Shown: positions 12,375 to 46,535 of the stretch, one piece after another
How the letters are laid out: each line of letters starts with the position of its first letter
Position numbering within the stretch: the first letter of the stretch is position 1
Source of the DNA: Podarcis bocagei
Taxonomy: Eukaryota
Strand: one strand, 5' to 3'
NCBI GenBank assembly: GCA_964188305.1
Contig: OZ076892.1
Length of the DNA stretch: 64,000 nucleotides
Notes under the pieces: generated by a model
What the model saw: the letters and a program-made list of their open reading frames with translations, nothing else
Told to the model about the DNA's origin: nothing
The model's database searches: none
Position numbers and translations under genes: made by a program

Positions 12375-13082
12375 CCGTATTTTTCGCCCTATAGGATGCA
12401 CTTTTTCCCCTCCAAAAATGAAGGGGAAATCTGGGTGCGTCCTATGGGGCGAATGCAGGCTTTTGCTGAAGCTTGGAGAGCGAGAGGGGTCGGTGCGCAC
12501 CGACCCCTCTCGCTCTCCAGGCTTCAGGAACACATCCGCAGCCTAGGCAGCCCTACGGGAGGTCCGGCAGGGATGTCTAGGCTGCAGATAGCAGCCTGCT
12601 GCCCAGCGCAAGGGGCGCCCTGAAGCAGAGCGCCCCTGCGCCAGGCAGACATCCGCAGCGTGGGGAGCCTTGCAGGAATTCCCTGCAAGGCTCCCCACGC
12701 TGCGGATAGCAGCCTGCCGCCCGGCGGGCGGGGCGCCCTGAAGCAGAGTGCCCCCCGCGCCAGGCAGACATCCGCAGTGTGGGGAGCCTTGCAGGAGTTC
12801 CCCGCAGGGCTCCCCACGCTGCGGATAGCAGCCTGCCGCCCCACGGGGGGGGCACCCTGATGCAGAGTGCCCCTCGCGCCGGGCAGACATGGGCCAGCCC
12901 CACAAGCTCGGGGGACAGCAGGGAGGCGCAGCGCCGCCATCCCGCTGTTCCTCGACCTGGTTCTGTTTCCCCGACCTGCTTTTGGGGGGGAAATAAAGGG
13001 AATTTTTTCCCCCTTTATTCCCCCCCCCAAAAAACTAGGTGTGTCCTATGGGACAGAGCGTCCTATGGGACGAAAAATACGG
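12375..13082. mobile_element. Tc2/pogo-like non-autonomous DNA transposon with internal GC-rich tandem hairpin units
   Basis: TIRs CCGTATTTTTCGCCCTATAGGA / TCCTATGGGACGAAAAATACGG with TA on both flanks; internal repeats of about 119 bp. Confidence 0.88.
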
Positions 13083-28884: not shown

Positions 28885-30976
28885 CCTGAGACTTCCGGGG
28901 TGGCGCCATCGTCAATGGCGGACTCCCTCTGAACTGGAGGGACTAGCTCTGCATGAAACGGGTCTTTTCCGCTACAGCGAAGCGGGGACCCAGCTAAAAA
29001 TCACAGGCGGATGAAGCCTGTGACCATGGGACTCGGCGGGCACCCTTAGCGCCCCCCCAACCCGCAAAGGAACCCACTAACGGGCTCCGAAGTGAAGAGG
29101 GGGAAGTGGCGCGGTGCTGTGAGTCAACTGCTATTTTCGTGGAGCGAAGCCGCACAGCCGTTGCCGGAGAGCACTGCCTTTTTCCTGGGACAATTTGGCT
29201 TCTAAAATAAGCACCCGTGAGTACTTAAACTTTGAACAATCGGACTTTAAATAAGGACTTGCGAAAAGAAAGGAATTGGACTTAAAAATTTATGTTAATT
29301 TGGTACTGAAACGGGAAGGTCTAAACAGGAAGTCAGCCTTCCGTTTCTTTGTAGACAGAATAAAGCAAAGGCAACATAAACTAGAGCTCAGAAAATCGCT
29401 TCTAAAGGATTGGCTTTCATCATTTAAAACTGTTGAACCCCCCTTCGGTAGCAGGAGAAGAAGGGGGATCTTTTTTGGACTGTTTAAACCTGCAGAAGTG
29501 AGTTTAAAGCAAAGTAACTTTCCACCGTCCTGATCCTGGAGCGGGGTGTCAGGACTGACGTTTTGAAGCTCATTGACCAGAGACAAACGTTTTTGACAGA
29601 TAGTTAAAGGAGGAGAAACATAGTGATTCCATTGCTTCCTTTCGCACTTTAAAGGAACAAATATTGACAAAATATCTCAAAAAAGATACTTTGTTGCAAG
29701 AACAAATAGAAGTTCTCCCCCTAGAGGGAGACTATGAAACTGTAACTAATTTCAGGGAGCTTGCAGCTGCCTCAGATTACAATCGTGGGAAAGGACTTGT
29801 GACCTTGTGGGACAATGTATCCAGAGGCTCTGCTGTGTGCTCTCTGTAAAACAAGTACCCTACTGGAACAGTTAAGTGAGAAGATGGAATTGATGACTAA
29901 TGCGGCCAGAATTTTTGAACAGGCAGTGGGAAACTATGTGGAGCCCACCCAGGAATTAGATCAGGAGTGTGTCCTGACAGAGCTGATGAGAGAAGAGGAT
30001 GTTGCCGAATCTTGGGCGCCAGAGATGGAGGGAGCTGCGGCCTTGCAGGAACAAGAGTTTTTGGACTTGACAAATGAACTTGGAAAAAGCCAGATTTGGA
30101 AAGATAAAGTTTGGATTGGTTTGGAAATGGGGGGTTGGATAGACCCCCCTATGCAGGGATGTTTGGACTTTCCGAGTCTGGCAATGGGCCGTGAGATGCT
30201 AGGAGCTGTGGGGGCTCTCAATTTTGGAGGGATTCTGAAATATCTTCTTAAATACCACATGGAGTTGAGTCTGGACTATGGAAAAGGGGCTGATTTGTTG
30301 AAAAGGGTCAAAAACATCATCAAGCTGGAGTTCCCACGAGTGAAAGGAGAATATGAAGAAGAGCTGCGGAAGGGACATGGAAGAGATTTAAGGGCCTCGG
30401 ATGTAAGGTTGCCAGGTTAATGCGCCAGATTGATGGGATAAAAAGGACTGACAAAACCCGGGACCAGGAGGAAGGGACGCTGGATGAAGATTGGATTGTT
30501 TTTATTTCTTTTTTTATTATCAGGATTGTTTTATAAAATTGATGAATGTTAGAAAAATGTTGGAATTAAATCATTTGGCTCTAGCAAAAATGTTTAAAGA
30601 ATTAGGCAAGAATATTATGGTTGTGAGAAGTTGGTAAAAATAAGATTTAAGTTTTAAGGTTTTAAGGTTTTCTATAAGATAAGATGAAAATAGATTAAGA
30701 TAATGTAATGACAGAATACTATGAAATATGGAAAGGATTTGCTGCATAATTAATAACCAGGATACAAAAAAAGGGAGAAGGAGGAGGTCAAAGAAAGAAG
30801 GTAATGAGACTTGAGGATTTGAGAATGATGGATTTATTTTTGTTGGTCTGCGGTGTATTTTTGTTTTTTTAATGTGGTTTTTTTCCTTAGTTTTTTCTAT
30901 TTTCCTTTTCTGCTTTGTTTTTTCTTTGCAATTTCAAAATTTTTAATAAATATCATATTAAAAATAAAAATAAAAA
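28885..30976 (+). mobile_element. 2.1-kb non-autonomous L1-like retroposed element
   Basis: TSD AAAAGTTATTAGAAAACCCC (28865-28884 / 30978-30997); CpG-rich 5' end starting GAGACTTCCGG; AATAAA at 30945-30950 then an (AAAAAT)n tail; no RT. It interrupts an older repeat related to 49540-49760. Confidence 0.85.
29815..30420 (+). CDS. Hypothetical 201-aa acidic ORF inside the retroposed element
   Basis: ATG-initiated, sense to the element, and the longest listed ORF outside the Gypsy element. No recognisable domain; the N-terminus looks helical. Confidence 0.35.
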   Translation: MYPEALLCALCKTSTLLEQLSEKMELMTNAARIFEQAVGNYVEPTQELDQECVLTELMREEDVAESWAPEMEGAAALQEQEFLDLTNELGKSQIWKDKVWIGLEMGGWIDPPMQGCLDFPSLAMGREMLGAVGALNFGGILKYLLKYHMELSLDYGKGADLLKRVKNIIKLEFPRVKGEYEEELRKGHGRDLRASDVRLPG

Positions 30977-39725: not shown

Positions 39726-39945
39726 AGGGGATCACGGATCAGGGAGCAGAGTGAGCAGGGGTGGCAACATATGGAGAGCACTGTATTGACTACCCTACCA
39801 TAGCTGGGCCCTTAGATGAACAAATGCAGCTTTGCATAGCCACATTTCAGAATGTCCCAAAAACTTGAGTTGAGCACTATTGCTTCCCTCGAATATTCCC
39901 CCCGCATGTGAAAACATTCTGTTGCAGATTGGTTCATGATGAAGG

Positions 39946-40353
39946 TGTCAGGGAACTGCCATCAGAGCATCAGGTGGTGGAGGGACTCAGGCAGGATGAA
40001 AGAGACTCAACTGCTGAAGCAGGGACCAGCAGGGGGAGGAGTGGGTCTCTGAGGGAATGCGAGCAGGAGGGAGGGCTCAGGGAGGCTTCCAGCGAGAACA
40101 GTGGGGAGGTATCGGAGTCTCCCATAGGGAGACCCATACCTCGCAGGAAACTGTCACGCCGTGAGTCCAGGAGACGCGTTTCCGTTAAGGAACTTCTTTG
40201 TTGGAAACGCTTCCGCAGACAGCCACTGTCGGACTCTACTAGTGACTAGAGCAGACATGTCTGAGGAGCTCCGTCACACACGGAGGTTTGTGGGGGCGCA
40301 CAAACTCTGAGGGAGCACGTTTTCACGCACAAGCAGCTAATCAAACCCTCACA
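39946..40353 (+). repeat. 5' LTR
   Basis: TGTCAGGG...CCCTCACA; no differences from the 3' LTR seen by eye. Confidence 0.97.
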
Positions 40354-40355
40354 GC

Positions 40356-40366
40356 AGTCCGACAGT
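40356..40366 (+). promoter_or_regulatory. Self-priming primer-binding site
   Basis: AGTCCGACAGT, 2 nt after the LTR, is the exact reverse complement of LTR 40225-40235 (ACTGTCGGACT). There is no TGG tRNA-type PBS. Confidence 0.8.
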
Positions 40367-40398
40367 CTTTGTACGCTGCCTGTGCAAGAGAAGGCATC

Positions 40399-41412
40399 AT
40401 GAGCGAACCAACCGGAACCGGAGGAGCAGGGGCTGGAGCTGGTCCAAGCTTGGAAGATAGATACCGAGCGTTGGAGGTTCAACTGGCCCTGCAGACGGCG
40501 AGGCTGGAGGAGAGAAGGGCTCAGGATGCAGACAAGAAGGGGAGAGCCACTCAATTCCCCAGAAAGGTACCAGGATTGGTGCAGAAATTTGGGGGGGACC
40601 CCAAGGACTACCATGCTTTTAGGACAGAGATGCAATATGCCCTTAATGTGCAGTTCGATGAGTTCCCTGATGAGGAATCGCGAGTTGCTTTTGTAATTGG
40701 GCATCTTGAGAAAGGGGCTAGAGACTGGGTGCGACCCCTAATGGCAACGCACAATGACATACTAAAGGACACAATGAAGTTCTTTCGTGCAATGGATATC
40801 ATGTTTTCCAGCGATATTGAGGAAGGGGTGGTGCGCAGACAGCTAATGGCTTGTAAGCAGGGGAGTCGATCTGTCCGTGAATATTGGACTGAGTTTACCA
40901 TGCTGATTCACAGACTGAGTTGGGATTTATCGGCGGCACCCGTTCAAATGCTATTTGAAGAAGGTCTTTCTTCGGGGGTGAAAGACGAGCTGGCACGGAG
41001 CCCCAGGGCGGAGTCTATGGATCAGCTGACCAAATCTGCGCTGACCATAGGAGCGCGGCAGGAGGCAAGAGCCTTGGAGAGGCGGGAAGGGAGAGGGGAA
41101 CGTTGGAAGGAGTTCCGCATTCCAGACATTCCTGAGCCAGCTTTCCCGCCGGCAGAGCCGATGGAAATCGGAACAGCGCGCGCGCGCGCATTTTCAAAAA
41201 CCAGCGAGGGAGCTAAGAAGGAGGGAAAGGGCCCCCGGAAATGCTATCTCTGCCAACAGCCAGGCCACTTTGCCAGAGTCTGCCCCCAGAGGAAGGAATG
41301 GCAAGGGATGGTGGGAGCTGTTGAGGGGGGAGAAGAAGGGGGAGCGGAGCAGGTAAAAGCCAACGCCTGGTTGCCACAATTGGGGCACTGCAGCCAGGCC
41401 AAAGAGCAGTGA
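40399..41412 (+). CDS. gag: Gag (337 aa; PEG10/sushi-like capsid and CCHC zinc knuckle)
   Basis: First ATG after the LTR is at 40399; KFGGDP..F, ESRVAFVIGHLEKGARDW, QGSRSVREY, EPMEIG, CYLCQQPGHFARVC. Confidence 0.95.
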   Translation: MSEPTGTGGAGAGAGPSLEDRYRALEVQLALQTARLEERRAQDADKKGRATQFPRKVPGLVQKFGGDPKDYHAFRTEMQYALNVQFDEFPDEESRVAFVIGHLEKGARDWVRPLMATHNDILKDTMKFFRAMDIMFSSDIEEGVVRRQLMACKQGSRSVREYWTEFTMLIHRLSWDLSAAPVQMLFEEGLSSGVKDELARSPRAESMDQLTKSALTIGARQEARALERREGRGERWKEFRIPDIPEPAFPPAEPMEIGTARARAFSKTSEGAKKEGKGPRKCYLCQQPGHFARVCPQRKEWQGMVGAVEGGEEGGAEQVKANAWLPQLGHCSQAKEQ

Positions 41413-41420
41413 AAGTGCCC
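41352..41420 (+). promoter_or_regulatory. Putative -1 ribosomal frameshift signal (G GTA AAA plus H-type pseudoknot)
   Basis: Pol is in the -1 frame and open from 41352. After a 6-nt spacer, stem 1 pairs 41365-41374 with 41390-41399 and stem 2 pairs 41383-41389 with 41414-41420. Confidence 0.7.
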
Positions 41421-44400
41421 GTGCCAGAAGCTCCTCGACCTGCTCTAGTGATTGAAGTGTCGCTAGAGCTGCAGAATGGGCACCCCCTAAAAATAAAGGC
41501 GCTATTGGACTCAGGCAGCTCCTGCAATTTTATGAGCAAGGAGTTTGCTGCTGAACACCAGATACAGACCATCCCTTTAAGCAACCCCCTGCAGGTGACC
41601 ACGATTGATGGCAGGGAGTTGTTGGGAGGAGGAGTCCGCTTGCAGACTGTCCCAATGATAATGAGGGTGGCAAGGCACACAGAACTGATAGCGTTTAATG
41701 TGGCCACCCTGGGAGGCGCTCCCATTATTTTGGGAATGAGCTGGCTAGCTCTACATGATCCGCTGGTTGGCTGGCATCAAAGAGTGGTGTCCTTTGGTTC
41801 AGCACATTGCCTAGAACACTGCAAAGGGGAGAAGGGTTCAGTAGGGGCCCAAGCCACCCTAGCAGGGACTGAAGTAATGGGGAAGGTGAAGGTACCACCA
41901 CAGTATGCAGATCTCAGCGACGTGTTCAGCGAGAAGGAAGCTGACCAACTACCACCTCATAGACCCTTTGATTGTCAGATCAATTTACTCCCTGGAGCAC
42001 AGCTTCCCGTGGGCAAGTTGTATGCCATGTCAGACAGGGAAATGCAGGAGTTGCGAGGGTTTATTGACAAGAACCTGAAGAGAGGCTTCATCAGAGAGTC
42101 CAAAGCAGCAGGGGGGAGCCCAGTGTTCTTTGTGGACAAAAAAAATGCGGACAAGCCGAGACTTGTATGTGATTTTAGGCGGCTGAATGCAGTGACTGAA
42201 CCGGTGGCGTTCCCTATGCCCAGAATTGATGATATTTTGACCATGGTGAGGAAGGGAAAGATTTTCACAAAGCTGGATCTAAGGGGGGCGTACAACCTGA
42301 TACGCATAAGGAAAGGGGATGAATGGAAAACCACCATGTTTACCCCTTTGGGGGCGTTTGAATACCTCGTTATGCCATTTGGATTACAAGCAGGCTCCGC
42401 GTGTTTTCAATCTTTTATGAACCACGTGCTGGGCCCTTTGCTCTACAAGAATTGCGTTGCCTTTCTAGATGATGTGTTGGTGTATTCTGAGAATGAGGAG
42501 CAACATGTGAGAGACGTCAGAGAAGTGTTGAGCAGACTGCAAGCCAACAGGCTGTGGGTCAAACTGGAGAAGTGTCGGTTCCATACCAAGGAGGTGGAAT
42601 TCCTGGGGTACCGCCTGTCAGACAAGGGATTGGCCATGGATCCCGGCAAGGTACAGGCAGTGCTGGAATGGAAAACACCCAAAACCAAGAAGGATGTGCA
42701 GAGGTTCCTAGGGTTTGGAAACTTTTATCGTAAGTTCATCCGCAACTTCGCCCATCTGACGGCGCCCATCACTGACTGTCTCAGCAGTAAGAAGAAGTTT
42801 GTATGGACGGCGGAGGCGGGGCGAGCGTTTGAGGAACTGAAAAGGGCCTTCGCCTCTGAAGAACAACTTCTGCATGTGGATTTACGAAAGAAGCTAAGGG
42901 TTGAAACAGACGCATCTGACAGAGCCATAGGGGCGGTGCTTCTTCTGCAGCCGGGGAAGGAGGAGTCGGAGTGGCGTCCGTGTGCCTTCTTCTCGCGGAA
43001 GCTGAACAAATCCGAGAGGAACTACACGGTGTACGACCGAGAACTGCTTGCTATTCATGAGGCGTTCCGGAGATGGAGGCATCTGCTAGTTGGTGCACAA
43101 CATAAAGTGCAAGTGTGCACGGACCATAAAAATCTAGAGTACTGGAGAACGGCGCGAGTGCTCAACCAAAGGCAGTTGAGATGGGCCCAAGAGTTCTCCA
43201 AATTTAACTTTGAGATTTGTTATGTGCCAGGCCCAGAGAATGTTAGGGCGGACGCTCTCTCACGCAAGCCTGAATATTTGGAGGGGGAGGGAGCACCCGA
43301 AGAAACCCATATCATTCCAGAGGACCGCTGGGTGTGTGGGGCGACTTTGGTGGGGCAAAGGGAATTGGTAGAGGGTACGGTGCAGGATGCATACGCCCAG
43401 GGGAAACTCAGGGATCTCAGAGGGGAGGAAGACAAACCCGGTGGTTTTGAGGAGAGAAATGGGGCATTGTATTATAAGGGAGCGTTATATATACCTGAAG
43501 GGGAATTGAGGGAGAAAGTACTCAAGCAGCTGCACGATAGCCCCACAGCAGGGCACTTTGGGCAACACAAAACCATGTGGCTGGTTACCAGGGAATTTTG
43601 GTGGCCCAAGGTCAGGGAAGATGTGCGGGAGTATGTGAGAGGGTGTGAACAATGCCAAAGAGCCAAGGGGGAGAGGCAGGCGCCGGCTGGTTTATTAGAA
43701 CCACTGCCCACACCTGAGAGACCGTGGGAAGCAGTGGCAATAGATTTCATGACTGATCTGCCAAGGTCTAGAGGGAAAACAGCCATCATGGTTGTAGTAG
43801 ACCTGTTAACTAAAATGGCCCACTTCATAGCCTGCTCACATGCGGTTACAGCAGAAGAAACCGCCAAATTGTTTGTAGAGAATGTGTTTAGGTTGCATGG
43901 CGCCCCCTTGAGGGTGGTTTCAGACCGAGGGAAACAATTTACTTCCAGGTTCTGGAGGAAGCTCATGAGCTTACTGCATGTAGAGGTTAATTTCTCGACG
44001 GCCCGTCATCCTGAAACCAACGGGCAGGCGGAAAGAGCAAATGGGGTTCTCCAACAATATTTGAGGTGTTATGTTAATGACAGAGAGAATGATTGGGTGG
44101 AGAAGCTGGCGTTGGCAGAATTTGCCTACAACAATGCAGAGAACGTGTCCACGGGGATGAGCCCCTTTTTGGCTAATCACGGGTGCCATCCCAGAGCCTT
44201 CCCAGGGGGGGAGGGGGAGAACTGGAGCGTTCCAGCTGCAGAACAGTTCGTGGAAGAAATGGAAGCGATCCATCGCCAGCTCCAACTCAACTTAAACAGG
44301 GCTAAGGAGGAATATAAGAGGCAAGCAGACAAAAACAGAAGGGAAGGTGAAAGCATCAGGGTGGGGGACCAGGTGTGGCTGTCAACCCAAGGGTTGCCAT

Positions 44401-45311
44401 TCAAAGGAGGTTGTAAGAAATTAAGACCCAAAAGGCTGGGTCCGTTTGAAGTCATACAGCAGGTCAATCCAGTGGCTTTCAGGCTCCGGTTACCGAACCA
44501 CATGAAGCTGCACCCAGTTTTTCACAGGTCGTTGCTGTCACCGTATAGAGGAGACAGTGAGGGGAGGGTCACTAGGGGACCAGCAATGGAGGAGAAGGAA
44601 CACAGCTACCATGTAGCGGAGATCCTCGATTCCAGGTGGAAGGGAGATCAAGTAGAGTATTTGGTAATGTGGGAAGGGGAACCGGAGTCGGAAAACACCT
44701 GGGTTAGGGCAGAGGATGTCAATGACGAGGTTTTAATAGAGACTTTTCATCAGAGGTTCCCACGTAAACCTCAGCCTGTAGCGAGGTTCCGAAGGGAATA
44801 CTTTGCCACCACCGACGAGGAAGAGGAGTTGGAGGGGTTCCCAGATTCTGAAGAGGAGGAGGATTCAGCTGGCCAGGACGACGATCGATGGAGAGAATTG
44901 TTCGAGACGTCAGAAGATGAGGAAGATTCGTTTCGGGGTTTTAGCCCTTCACCTCCAAGGGGGGAGGAATTGGGAGGGGGTGAGGGGGGCCCTGGAGGGG
45001 AGGTGGATGTCAGGGAACTGCCATCAGAGCATCAGGTGGTGGAGGGACTCAGGCAGGATGAAAGAGACTCAACTGCTGAAGCAGGGACCAGCAGGGGGAG
45101 GAGTGGGTCTCTGAGGGAATGCGAGCAGGAGGGAGGGCTCAGGGAGGCTTCCAGCGAGAACAGTGGGGAGGTATCGGAGTCTCCCATAGGGAGACCCATA
45201 CCTCGCAGGAAACTGTCACGCCGTGAGTCCAGGAGACGCGTTTCCGTTAAGGAACTTCTTTGTTGGAAACGCTTCCGCAGACAGCCACTGTCGGACTCTA
45301 CTAGTGACTAG
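41352..45311 (+). CDS. pol: Pol polyprotein: protease, RT, RNase H, integrase, chromodomain and long C-terminal tail (probably made as Gag-Pol by frameshift)
   Basis: LLDSGS (protease); MPFGL and FLDDVLV (RT); ETDASD (RNase H); H..H..CEQC, IDF, SDRG and GQAER (integrase); LGPFEV (GPY/F); YHVAEILDSR..YLVMWEG..ENTW (chromodomain). Confidence 0.97.
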   Translation, partial: GKSQRLVATIGALQPGQRAVKVPVPEAPRPALVIEVSLELQNGHPLKIKALLDSGSSCNFMSKEFAAEHQIQTIPLSNPLQVTTIDGRELLGGGVRLQTVPMIMRVARHTELIAFNVATLGGAPIILGMSWLALHDPLVGWHQRVVSFGSAHCLEHCKGEKGSVGAQATLAGTEVMGKVKVPPQYADLSDVFSEKEADQLPPHRPFDCQINLLPGAQLPVGKLYAMSDREMQELRGFIDKNLKRGFIRESKAAGGSPVFFVDKKNADKPRLVCDFRRLNAVTEPVAFPMPRIDDILTMVRKGKIFTKLDLRGAYNLIRIRKGDEWKTTMFTPLGAFEYLVMPFGLQAGSACFQSFMNHVLGPLLYKNCVAFLDDVLVYSENEEQHVRDVREVLSRLQANRLWVKLEKCRFHTKEVEFLGYRLSDKGLAMDPGKVQAVLEWKTPKTKKDVQRFLGFGNFYRKFIRNFAHLTAPITDCLSSKKKFVWTAEAGRAFEELKRAFASEEQLLHVDLRKKLRVETDASDRAIGAVLLLQPGKEESEWRPCAFFSRKLNKSERNYTVYDRELLAIHEAFRRWRHLLVGAQHKVQVCTDHKNLEYWRTARVLNQRQLRWAQEFSKFNFEICYVPGPENVRADALSRKPEYLEGEGAPEETHIIPEDRWVCGATLVGQRELVEGTVQDAYAQGKLRDLRGEEDKPGGFEERNGALYYKGALYIPEGELREKVLKQLHDSPTAGHFGQHKTMWLVTREFWWPKVREDVREYVRGCEQCQRAKGERQAPAGLLEPLPTPERPWEAVAIDFMTDLPRSRGKTAIMVVVDLLTKMAHFIACSHAVTAEETAKLFVENVFRLHGAPLRVVSDRGKQFTSRFWRKLMSLLHVEVNFSTARHPETNGQAERANGVLQQYLRCYVNDRENDWVEKLALAEFAYNNAENVSTGMSPFLANHGCHPRAFPGGEGENWSVPAAEQFVEEMEAIHRQLQLNLNRAKEEYKRQADKNRREGESIRVGDQVWLSTQGLPFKGGCKKLRPKRLGPFEVIQQVNPVAFRLRLPNHMKLHPVFHRSLLSPYRGDSEGRVTRGPAMEEKEHSYHVAEILDSRWKGDQVEYLVMWEGEPESENTWVRAEDVNDEVLIETFHQRFPRKPQPVARFRREYFATTDEEEELEGFPDSEEEEDSAGQDDDRWRELFETSEDEEDSFRGFSPSPPRGEELGGGEGGPGGEVDVRELPSEHQVVEGLRQDERDSTAEAGTSRGRSGSLRECEQEGGLREASSENSGEVSESPIGRPIPRRKLSRRESRRRVSVKELLCWKRFRRQPLSDSTSD
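44994..45007 (+). other. Polypurine tract
   Basis: GGAGGGGAGGTGGA immediately before the 3' LTR. Confidence 0.75.
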
Positions 45312-45415
45312 AGCAGACATGTCTGAGGAGCTCCGTCACACACGGAGGTTTGTGGGGGCGCACAAACTCTGAGGGAGCACGTTTTCACGCACAAGCAGCT
45401 AATCAAACCCTCACA
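45008..45415 (+). repeat. 3' LTR (first 304 nt overlap pol)
   Basis: Direct repeat of 39946-40353. Confidence 0.97.
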
Positions 45416-46535
45416 GAAGGTGTTCAATCTCTTCTTCTTCTTCTTTTGAATACCAAGCTGAATACATTACTATAAATGTGGTGAGTTAAGACACTCAACT
45501 GCTTTAGTCAGTCTGCCTGTGCTCAATGTTCCAGGACGTAAAAGCTAATATTTTTTAGGGAAACTAAATCTCCAAGCCAGTAGCATACTAAAAAAAGCCC
45601 AATCTCCCATAAATGTTACCCTTCCTCTGAACTTCCTTCATTTTCCATACTGGATTCCACTTCTATATCTATTTGTTCTGAATAGGCAACAAAATCCCTC
45701 TCTGGAACAGACAATACTGATACACCTTGCCAGATCTAGCAGTTCGTAATGTATGTATTATTGAAATATTGTCCTCCAAGTCTGAAATCATGAACAGAAT
45801 TAGTTGCATCCAGAGAGGTTCTTTCTTCCAGGGACTTAAAGCAGCTCACTGCTGCTAAAAATACTTTTCTTCCATACATATAGTTTCAAACAAAGTATAT
45901 AGTGTAAATGTAATACCATGAAGGAATCGGTTCTTCCTATATCCTTCCAGTGAACAAACATGGCAAATTTCAACTTTTCATAAATCATGTATGTTAAGTG
46001 TAAAGCCAACCCCTACCATATAATTCTGCAGTCTTTGCACATAATGTATTTGGCAAGGGGGTGCCCAAGCTCCTTTAGGTTGTGTAAAAAGCCGTTGCTG
46101 TTGTTGGTGTTGTTGTTGTTTCTAGCAATGTTAAAATGTTAAAAAATAGTGACATAACACAACAATATATAGAATCATTGAAGACATTGTACATCTTCTA
46201 TATCTACATTCTGGAAAGCTGTTTGCCTGTTTGCTATGTATTTAGACAACTCTTTAAAGTATTATAACCACATTCTGTATTATGCATCCTGAGATCAAGG
46301 AGCAGGGTTTCTTGCTTATATTTCAATACAATTGGATGCCAGTTTGAATGAAGATAGTGGACCAAACTTTTAAAAACTGCCCCAATTTTAACCACTGATT
46401 TCAAAACTGCACTGTTTGTTTTGGATTTTTAGAATTCTTGAGCAGTAGTGGGTACAGGGCTATTAACAATAGACCACAAGGATAAAAAAGCACAAAACGA
46501 CATGGTTGTGTGAGGTGTATATATATATATATATA

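Follow-up and report, generated by a model that had tools for sequence, protein, structure and literature searches.

Chromoviruses whose pol gene itself enters the 3' LTR are known from plants. In CRM group A and in the Beetle and Bingo elements of Beta vulgaris, pol is described as extending into the 3' LTR (PMC3059260, PMC3605345), and the accounts of CRM group A describe an LTR-coded CR motif in place of a chromodomain, with priming by tRNA-Met. In Tf1-type elements, the PBS is reported to anneal to the 5' terminus of the mRNA of the same element (PMC4600332, PMC6317226). The element described here shares the course of its pol frame with the plant elements. Protein-coding U3 sequences are also found in retroviruses, where nef and sag are separate accessory ORFs in U3, expressed from their own mRNAs. 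The initial annotation of this locus had pointed to these genes as the better-known case of a long U3 overlap. U3 is coding in both cases, but here it encodes the in-frame end of Pol rather than a separate ORF, and the closest precedent is provided by CRM group A and Bingo. The extension of pol into the 3' LTR is already known; the surprising part lies in the motifs of the tail.

The 64-kb stretch of DNA analysed here (the window) contains an intact LTR element of the Ty3/Gypsy chromovirus type at 39946-45415, with all features on the plus strand. Its two LTRs (39946-40353 and 45008-45415) are 408 nt long, have the same sequence and end in TG...CA, and the element is flanked by a 5-bp TSD, GAAGG (39941-39945 and 45416-45420). 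Because the two LTRs are identical and TSD-flanked, the insertion is recent. The gag gene (40399-41412, ATG at 40399) codes for a Retrotrans_gag domain, Ty3 capsid, and a zinc knuckle. The pol gene (41325-45311), in the -1 frame of gag, codes for protease, RT, RNase H, integrase (H2C2, rve, SH3), a chromodomain (44607-44756, aa 1095-1144; PF00385, E 1.5e-11) and a 184-aa tail. Both the order of gag followed by PR-RT-RH-IN, with the chromodomain in the integrase C-terminal region, and the combination of TG...CA LTRs, a PPT (44994-45007) and a 5-bp TSD are those of Ty3/Gypsy chromoviruses. The gag and pol frames overlap by 88 nt (41325-41412), where only imperfect slippery heptamers were seen by eye. 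In several P. muralis relatives (P0002, P0003), the pol frame is open further upstream, across the zinc knuckle.

As for the surroundings, Pfam searches with 129 of the 192 flanking ORFs of at least 70 aa returned only LINE-type RT and one sub-threshold match. An 814-aa open frame with a LINE-type RT domain runs off the window start on the minus strand (1-2442). A GC-rich tandem array with a period of ~119 nt lies at 12564-12873, and a 205-aa open frame of protein-like make-up, without Pfam match, at 29803-30420 on the plus strand.

Pol is a single open frame of 1328 aa from stop to stop. The stretch from the chromodomain to the LTR contains no stop, and the frame passes the PPT, which reads as G-G-E-V-D. 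The first nucleotide of the 3' LTR is the third base of D1228 and is followed by 100 sense codons (45009-45308, VRELPSE...PLSDSTSD) and the stop TAG at 45309-45311, LTR nt 302-304. The initial annotation had claimed a 100-codon run through the PPT and 304 of the 408 LTR bases, and this is exact. It had also proposed an Arg/Ser-rich tail. That description fits the last ~35 residues only (aa 1294-1328, 45204-45311), a conserved end made of a basic block, a predicted K.LLCW helix and the stop; the first ~65 (aa 1229-1293, 45009-45203) instead form an acidic, Gly- and Ser-containing spacer of low complexity, with in-frame length variation and relaxed constraint. In a single copy, 100 open codons occur by chance in 1.4% of mononucleotide and 3.7% of dinucleotide shuffles, and the whole post-chromodomain tail is open in 0.02% and 0.24% of them, respectively. 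The open frame of one copy is suggestive, being by itself only moderately unlikely by chance, and the decisive support comes from relatives.

How much of the frame lies in U3 depends on the start of R. The PBS-type stretch after the 5' LTR (40356-40366) is the exact reverse complement, over 11 nt, of nt 280-290 of the element's own LTR (40225-40235 in the 5' copy), and complementarity of this kind characterizes the Tf1/sushi group, the comparison being with the own LTR. The 11-bp duplex is present in the MFE and centroid folds, and the folding of the whole leader is unremarkable (z -1.13). By analogy with Tf1 and Tj1, nt 280-290 would be a self-primer and R would start near LTR nt 280, so that the frame would cover all of U3 and stop ~25 nt into R. 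In the 3' LTR, the self-primer bases (45287-45297) fall within pol codons 1321-1325. The sequence GCCACT at the presumed start agrees with the Inr consensus BBCABW. The LTR contains neither TATA nor AATAAA nor ATTAAA; AATAAA is also absent from the next 1.6 kb, and AATCAA at LTR nt 394 (noted within 45399-45415) is the sole candidate poly(A) signal. The LTR ends, TGTCAGG and CCTCACA, conform to the Tf1/sushi motifs TGTYANR and CNTNACA as tabulated in PMC3601003 (Table 3). The same source describes fish sushi LTRs in which U3 is T-rich and contains a stretch resembling TATA, with AATAAA close to the 3' end, whereas the U3 of the window is G-rich (35% G, 17% T) and coding and has neither signal; these traits belong to a model trained on fish and are not group-wide. 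The gag frame, too, has no stop between LTR nt 301 and its ATG at 40399, a stretch that takes in U5 and the PBS (40246-40398), such that the pol and gag frames together span the LTR from end to end. We rejected coding of U5 in the gag frame, as the post-stop variants among the best-supported rows described below are silent in it in 4 of 12 cases, with no bias, and unpaired indels occur there; this opening is probably not coding.

Contigs from eight sequencing runs (five organisms) were aligned to the region. The best 40 of 64 and the best 40 of 104 variant rows, to which all counts in this and the next two paragraphs refer, contain 68 distinct changes, 39 of them in the LTR-coded part. Twenty-three of these 39 are silent and 16 replacing, with no stop, whereas random placement of these base changes yields a mean of 11.1 silent ones (p 6e-5). 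The proportion is 21/37 in U3 alone and 19/35 once CpG transitions are removed, and each contig set is significant separately (12/21 and 17/29 silent). All 22 changes at third positions of the pol frame are silent. The signal is strongest in the last 33 codons (45210-45308), where 12 of 14 changes are silent; the other two are an R->K replacement and a Leu change that is silent together with its neighbour, the two Leu1312 changes having near-equal depths and jointly still encoding Leu. The 5' part (45008-45209) has 11/25 silent changes (p 0.06). It is close to certain that the LTR-coded part of pol is under purifying selection as coding sequence.

Two other explanations have to be weighed. The first is passive read-through of a stop-poor, G-rich U3, the end being kept by constraints on DNA or RNA, namely a core promoter at ~-38 to -21 and the self-primer at +1 to +11. 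K.LLCW is indeed coded where a TATA box would sit and the PLSD codons overlap the self-primer; moreover, a single-copy open frame has a chance of 1-4%, and the lack of stops among the 39 variants is unremarkable, occurring in 31% of permutations. Nevertheless, the DNA of the conserved block does vary, and nearly only silently, the other two sense frames have 6/39 silent changes, and P0004, P0048 and family C (see below) retain the frame as well as the end motif, with LTR-coded lengths that range from ~80 to 218 aa. The silent-site bias already largely refutes passive read-through, which we consider very improbable, and which may still hold for the last 8 codons. The second, even less probable, is selection on an antisense frame that shares its third positions with pol. 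This frame is open over 90 codons in the LTR, with 21 of the 39 variants silent. However, third-position changes are silent in 20 of 22 cases in this frame as against 22 of 22 in pol, the shared register accounts for the signal, and it is the sense frame that runs on from pol without a break and whose protein is conserved between families.

The indels in the rows considered also bear on the preservation of the frame. Skips of 48 and 45 nt preserve it. Indels of 1 nt within the coded part occur as pairs of +1 and -1, possibly produced by the alignment where substitutions cluster, except for a +1 in one two-gap X2 contig. Two low-depth skips, recorded by length only (245 and 86 nt), are not multiples of three. 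Indels of -1 and -2 without a compensating partner are located downstream of the stop. The post-stop region is not a clean control, since 7 of its 12 changes fall at third positions when the pol frame is extended (p 0.07); in that frame, 5 of 12 are silent (p 0.23).

The frame also persists among relatives. When aa 1085-1328 were used as the query, three clusters from Podarcis muralis were retrieved, and the closest named relatives are those of P. muralis. Twenty stored family proteins extend as far as the GxEVDV junction. Fifteen of them share the terminal motif PLS[DE]S.SD, located after 100, 102, 103 or 115 LTR-coded residues, the proteins being mostly database gene models and ascertained as such (P0004, P0175 and P0176 come from raw contigs). 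The remaining five, which stop early after 5, 35, 78, 81 and 87 aa, could be damaged copies or truncated gene models. Together with the silent-site bias, the retention of the end motif upholds the earlier proposal that U3 is protein-coding. P0004 and P0048, with tails 59% and 35% identical to that of the window, retain the junction (GxDV in the distant P0048) and K.LLCWKR. P0004 is identical to the window at 37 of 51 chromodomain positions, at 43 of 79 positions of the acidic part, at 27 of 67 of the LTR spacer and at 23 of 33 of the end. A homologue search from the P0048 tail found only P0048 itself, and the ESM Atlas returned only chromodomain clusters (score at most 0.81). Viral contigs gave three pattern matches and no relatives. 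The search of metagenome contigs gave 80 loci, mostly distant (33-54% identity) and with no DNA of the lizard families among them; two of the 80 have a chromodomain ORF, and one of these two, L015, runs ~9 codons beyond a PPT-like tract.

We collected 116 further integrase relatives, in 107 of which the chromodomain could be located. The tail that follows it has a median length of 16 aa in these 107; unlike in the window, 90 of them stop at most 35 residues past the chromodomain. Fourteen tails reach at least 60 aa: nine are from Podarcis, Anolis or a neighbour, three look chimeric and two measure 71 and 88 aa. The tail of Anolis P0189 is just 13 aa long. In a tree of integrase and chromodomain, built from 49 rows chosen by hand and leaving P0189 out, a single split (100/99) sets the 17 long-tail rows apart, and among these the window's family (W) groups with family C (100/100) and families A and B group with only 85/70. 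Judged from these sequences, long tails mark a whole squamate-type clade. Complete tails extend 85-97 aa past the junction-like motif in family A (Anolis), 111-117 aa in B, 209-218 aa in C and 102 aa in D, the LTR boundaries of these four families being placed from protein alone. Family C (Podarcis; P0182, P0184, P0186, P0364) has tails of 350-400 aa, of which ~210 codons lie beyond the presumed LTR junction, and a decayed chromodomain.

Many of the short tails cross a purine-rich stretch followed by x-V, in the register of the window's junction. Fish-type Pols (P0083, P0095, P0096, P0097, P0135, P0139, P0178) pass GGG[SNDT]V and end 15-25 residues on in an SP[EV][YF]-like terminus, which is perhaps a short LTR-coded motif of its own. 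Because the short tails share the x-V register and the fish-type proteins end 15-25 residues later, brief read-through past the PPT is probably old. It appears common in chromoviruses, contrary to the premise of the initial annotation that Gypsy pol usually stops before or near the PPT.

The part of the tail upstream of the LTR harbours motifs that resemble those of host chromatin proteins. TIMs are described as a short hydrophobic helix that serves as an anchor (F/V/L/I), a linker 8-16 residues long that is acidic and rich in S/T, and FxGF as an optional element, which is present in all known LEDGF/HRP2 partners (PMC9987994; see also PMC8534522), and a DFxGFDE motif is reported for JIL-1 (bioRxiv 624023). 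Between the chromodomain and the PPT of the window element are two tandem repeats, RREYF-ATTDEEEE-LEGF (motif 1, aa 1156-1172, 44790-44840) and WRELF-ETSEDEEDS-FRGF (motif 2, aa 1189-1206, 44889-44942), which we propose to be TIM-like. The initial annotation mentioned neither these FxGF motifs just upstream of the LTR nor the clade-wide pattern of long tails. The linkers from the anchor F to [FL]xGF are 8 and 9 residues long and rich in D, E, S and T, within the range given for TIMs. The L-F and Y-F anchors are present, with only a 3-residue helix at low pLDDT in a region predicted to be disordered. In the AlphaFold model, the chromodomain is folded (pLDDT 80-90), the tail is mostly at pLDDT 37-53, in keeping with predicted disorder, and a weak helix is predicted over KELLCWKR in the conserved LTR-coded end. 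The W, F and F.GF of motif 2 are invariant in alignment A3, among relatives that are 35-59% identical in the tail. Motif 1 reads LEGF in the window, with L for the first F, and FxGF in P0004, P0005 and P0007. The strict F-linker-FxGF pattern occurs in 53 of 376 stored proteins, all of them in W or C or being P0031, a count to be read with the facts that the pattern was composed after the motif had been seen and that most control proteins lack long acidic tails. It arises in 0.08% of tail shuffles and 0.36% of shuffles of the acidic part. In family C, an invariant F-TPTLSAST-FxGF has an S/T linker in place of the acidic one, alongside a conserved YWW..P...W.

In sequence searches of the PDB, the acidic region of the window had no hits, motif 2 one chance hit, and neither matched a TND structure; the basic end (K.LLCW) had no hits. 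The motif of P0031 gave two hits, one of which was the LEDGF-JPO2 structure 5YI9, aligned on IF...FAGF and not significant (E 1.4). P0031 consists of a chromodomain fragment, otherwise a different chromodomain, directly followed by a near-canonical TIM-like motif; it lies outside the tree and possibly represents a further family.

The chromodomain itself differs between the branches. Group I chromodomains are described as having a three-residue aromatic cage (PMC3605345). In a text line-up, the cage positions of the window read Y/W/E rather than YWY, the third being E and not aromatic; P0004 and P0048 also lack the first cage residue and family C lacks the W, whereas A and B keep all three. 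The branch with FxGF is thus the one with a degenerate cage, and A and B have an intact cage. This is one evolutionary contrast and not a series of independent repeats. The C-termini differ too. RRS[AL]R[IL] is found near the C-terminus of 21 stored proteins, from Anolis family A and Podarcis family B; examples are P0187, P0191, P0309 and P0318 (Anolis) and P0195 and P0334 (Podarcis). In its place, the proteins of W and C terminate with a stretch of basic residues and [LIV]L[CSN]W, and the RRESR of the window departs from the HMGN-like RRS[AS]R core, which is present in A and B only. Anolis tails also have a conserved DE[ED]EN[LM]GF just past the presumed LTR start.

We lean towards the view that the U3-coded, disordered integrase tail, whose frame and selection are observed, serves as a docking arm that would bind host chromatin proteins. 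Its short motifs likely imitate host chromatin-docking signals and thereby steer insertion. Alternatively, the tail might be translated and selected only as an arm for nuclear import or nucleic-acid binding, the likeness to FxGF being incidental and no host tether involved. The strongest constraint in the LTR sits on the basic block, basic NLS-like stretches are reported in other chromoviral integrases (PMC3605345), and the window's own FxGF motifs match no TND structure in the PDB. An import signal would have no need of these aromatic residues, yet W, F and F.GF are invariant at 35-59% tail identity and the motif recurs in family C with a different linker; sister families, moreover, end in the specific RRSAR[IL] rather than in just any basic residues. 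We therefore consider it unlikely that import or nucleic-acid binding is the sole role of the tail.

A docking arm might operate as follows. The genomic RNA would be organized as R-U5-gag-pol-U3-R, such that U3 would be translated from its 3' copy while the same DNA in the 5' LTR would act as a TATA-less promoter. Mature integrase would retain ~184 disordered residues after the chromodomain. LEDGF or HRP2, which read H3K36me2/3, would be bound through their TND/IBD by the two acidic F...[FL]xGF motifs that precede the LTR. We see an even chance for this binding, and docking of this type would replace the degenerate chromodomain cage. The LTR-coded basic block and K.LLCW helix may serve in nuclear import or in contacts with nucleosomes or DNA; a nuclear or nucleosomal role of this end is rather probable in our estimate. 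The RRSAR[IL] anchor appears to do an equivalent job at the same place in the sister families. As for the LTR-coded spacer, it could act as a flexible linker, constrained loosely enough to accommodate promoter sequence as well. A broader scenario, which we put forward tentatively, is that the tail of this squamate chromovirus clade, partly coded in U3, is a swappable kit of host-mimicking motifs. One branch might have kept the methyl-lysine cage and added an HMGN-type nucleosome anchor. In the window's branch, the cage might have decayed and tandem TIMs for the recruitment of LEDGF/HRP2 might have been acquired, so that motif mimicry would have led it to the tether used by HIV-1 and shifted its insertions from heterochromatin to H3K36me3 gene bodies.

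This element provides a vertebrate LTR whose whole U3 appears to have a dual use, as putative promoter DNA and as selected protein. Annotation of such sequences as LTR only and the dating of solo LTRs under an assumption of neutrality would mislead for this squamate clade. If the motifs work as proposed, a retrotransposon would have reached LEDGF/HRP2, the lentiviral tether, independently and by means of a copied TIM, and the sister families would have reached the nucleosome acidic patch by means of an HMGN-like motif. Since annotated copies number in the hundreds in lizards (Anolis cluster sizes 366 and 94), the targets of vertebrate chromoviruses and the role of the chromodomain become testable.

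The comparison with described systems sets out what is shared and what is particular to this locus. We found no squamate report of pol extending into the LTR, nor of TIM- or HMGN-like motifs in a retrotransposon integrase, in the literature covered; the overlap may already be noted in sources outside it, such as Repbase, GyDB, Dfam and the majority of subscription papers, the first accounts of Tf1/sushi among them. With the Tf1/sushi elements of fungi and vertebrates as described (PMC4600332, PMC6317226, PMC3601003), the window element shares the order of its domains, the chromodomain at the C-terminal side, a PBS that is complementary to the element's LTR, and TGTYANR/CNTNACA ends. It resembles CRM group A, Beetle and Bingo in that pol itself enters the 3' LTR. 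It differs from CRM group A, as reported, in that a chromodomain is kept and precedes the PPT, followed by ~83 acidic residues with FxGF and then by 100 LTR codons, and in its predicted self-priming and vertebrate host. Tails that tether an integrase to the host have a precedent in Ty1, the integrase of which reportedly binds AC40 through a small targeting domain (PMC7459421). Ty1 integrase is also described as a CK2 substrate (PMC9673352). In their sequence, the two motifs of the window are similar to the TIM/IBM of JPO2, IWS1 and KMT2A, as these are described, with an anchor, an acidic S/T linker and FxGF in a disordered, tandem arrangement. By analogy, LEDGF/HRP2 as an integration tether would be common to the window's family and lentiviruses. 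Lentiviral integrases contact TNDs via the folded integrase and not through a copied linear motif. As hijackers of the LEDGF/HRP2 TNDs, the review PMC9987994 names lentiviral integrases alone. Finally, the acidic-patch motif of HMGN and Dsup is given as RRSARLSA (PMC12487698), and similar termini, RRS[AL]RIA[AK] or PRRSARLKA, are present in the sister families A (Anolis) and B (Podarcis), whereas the window's family, with RRESRRR...K.LLCW, stands outside this motif.
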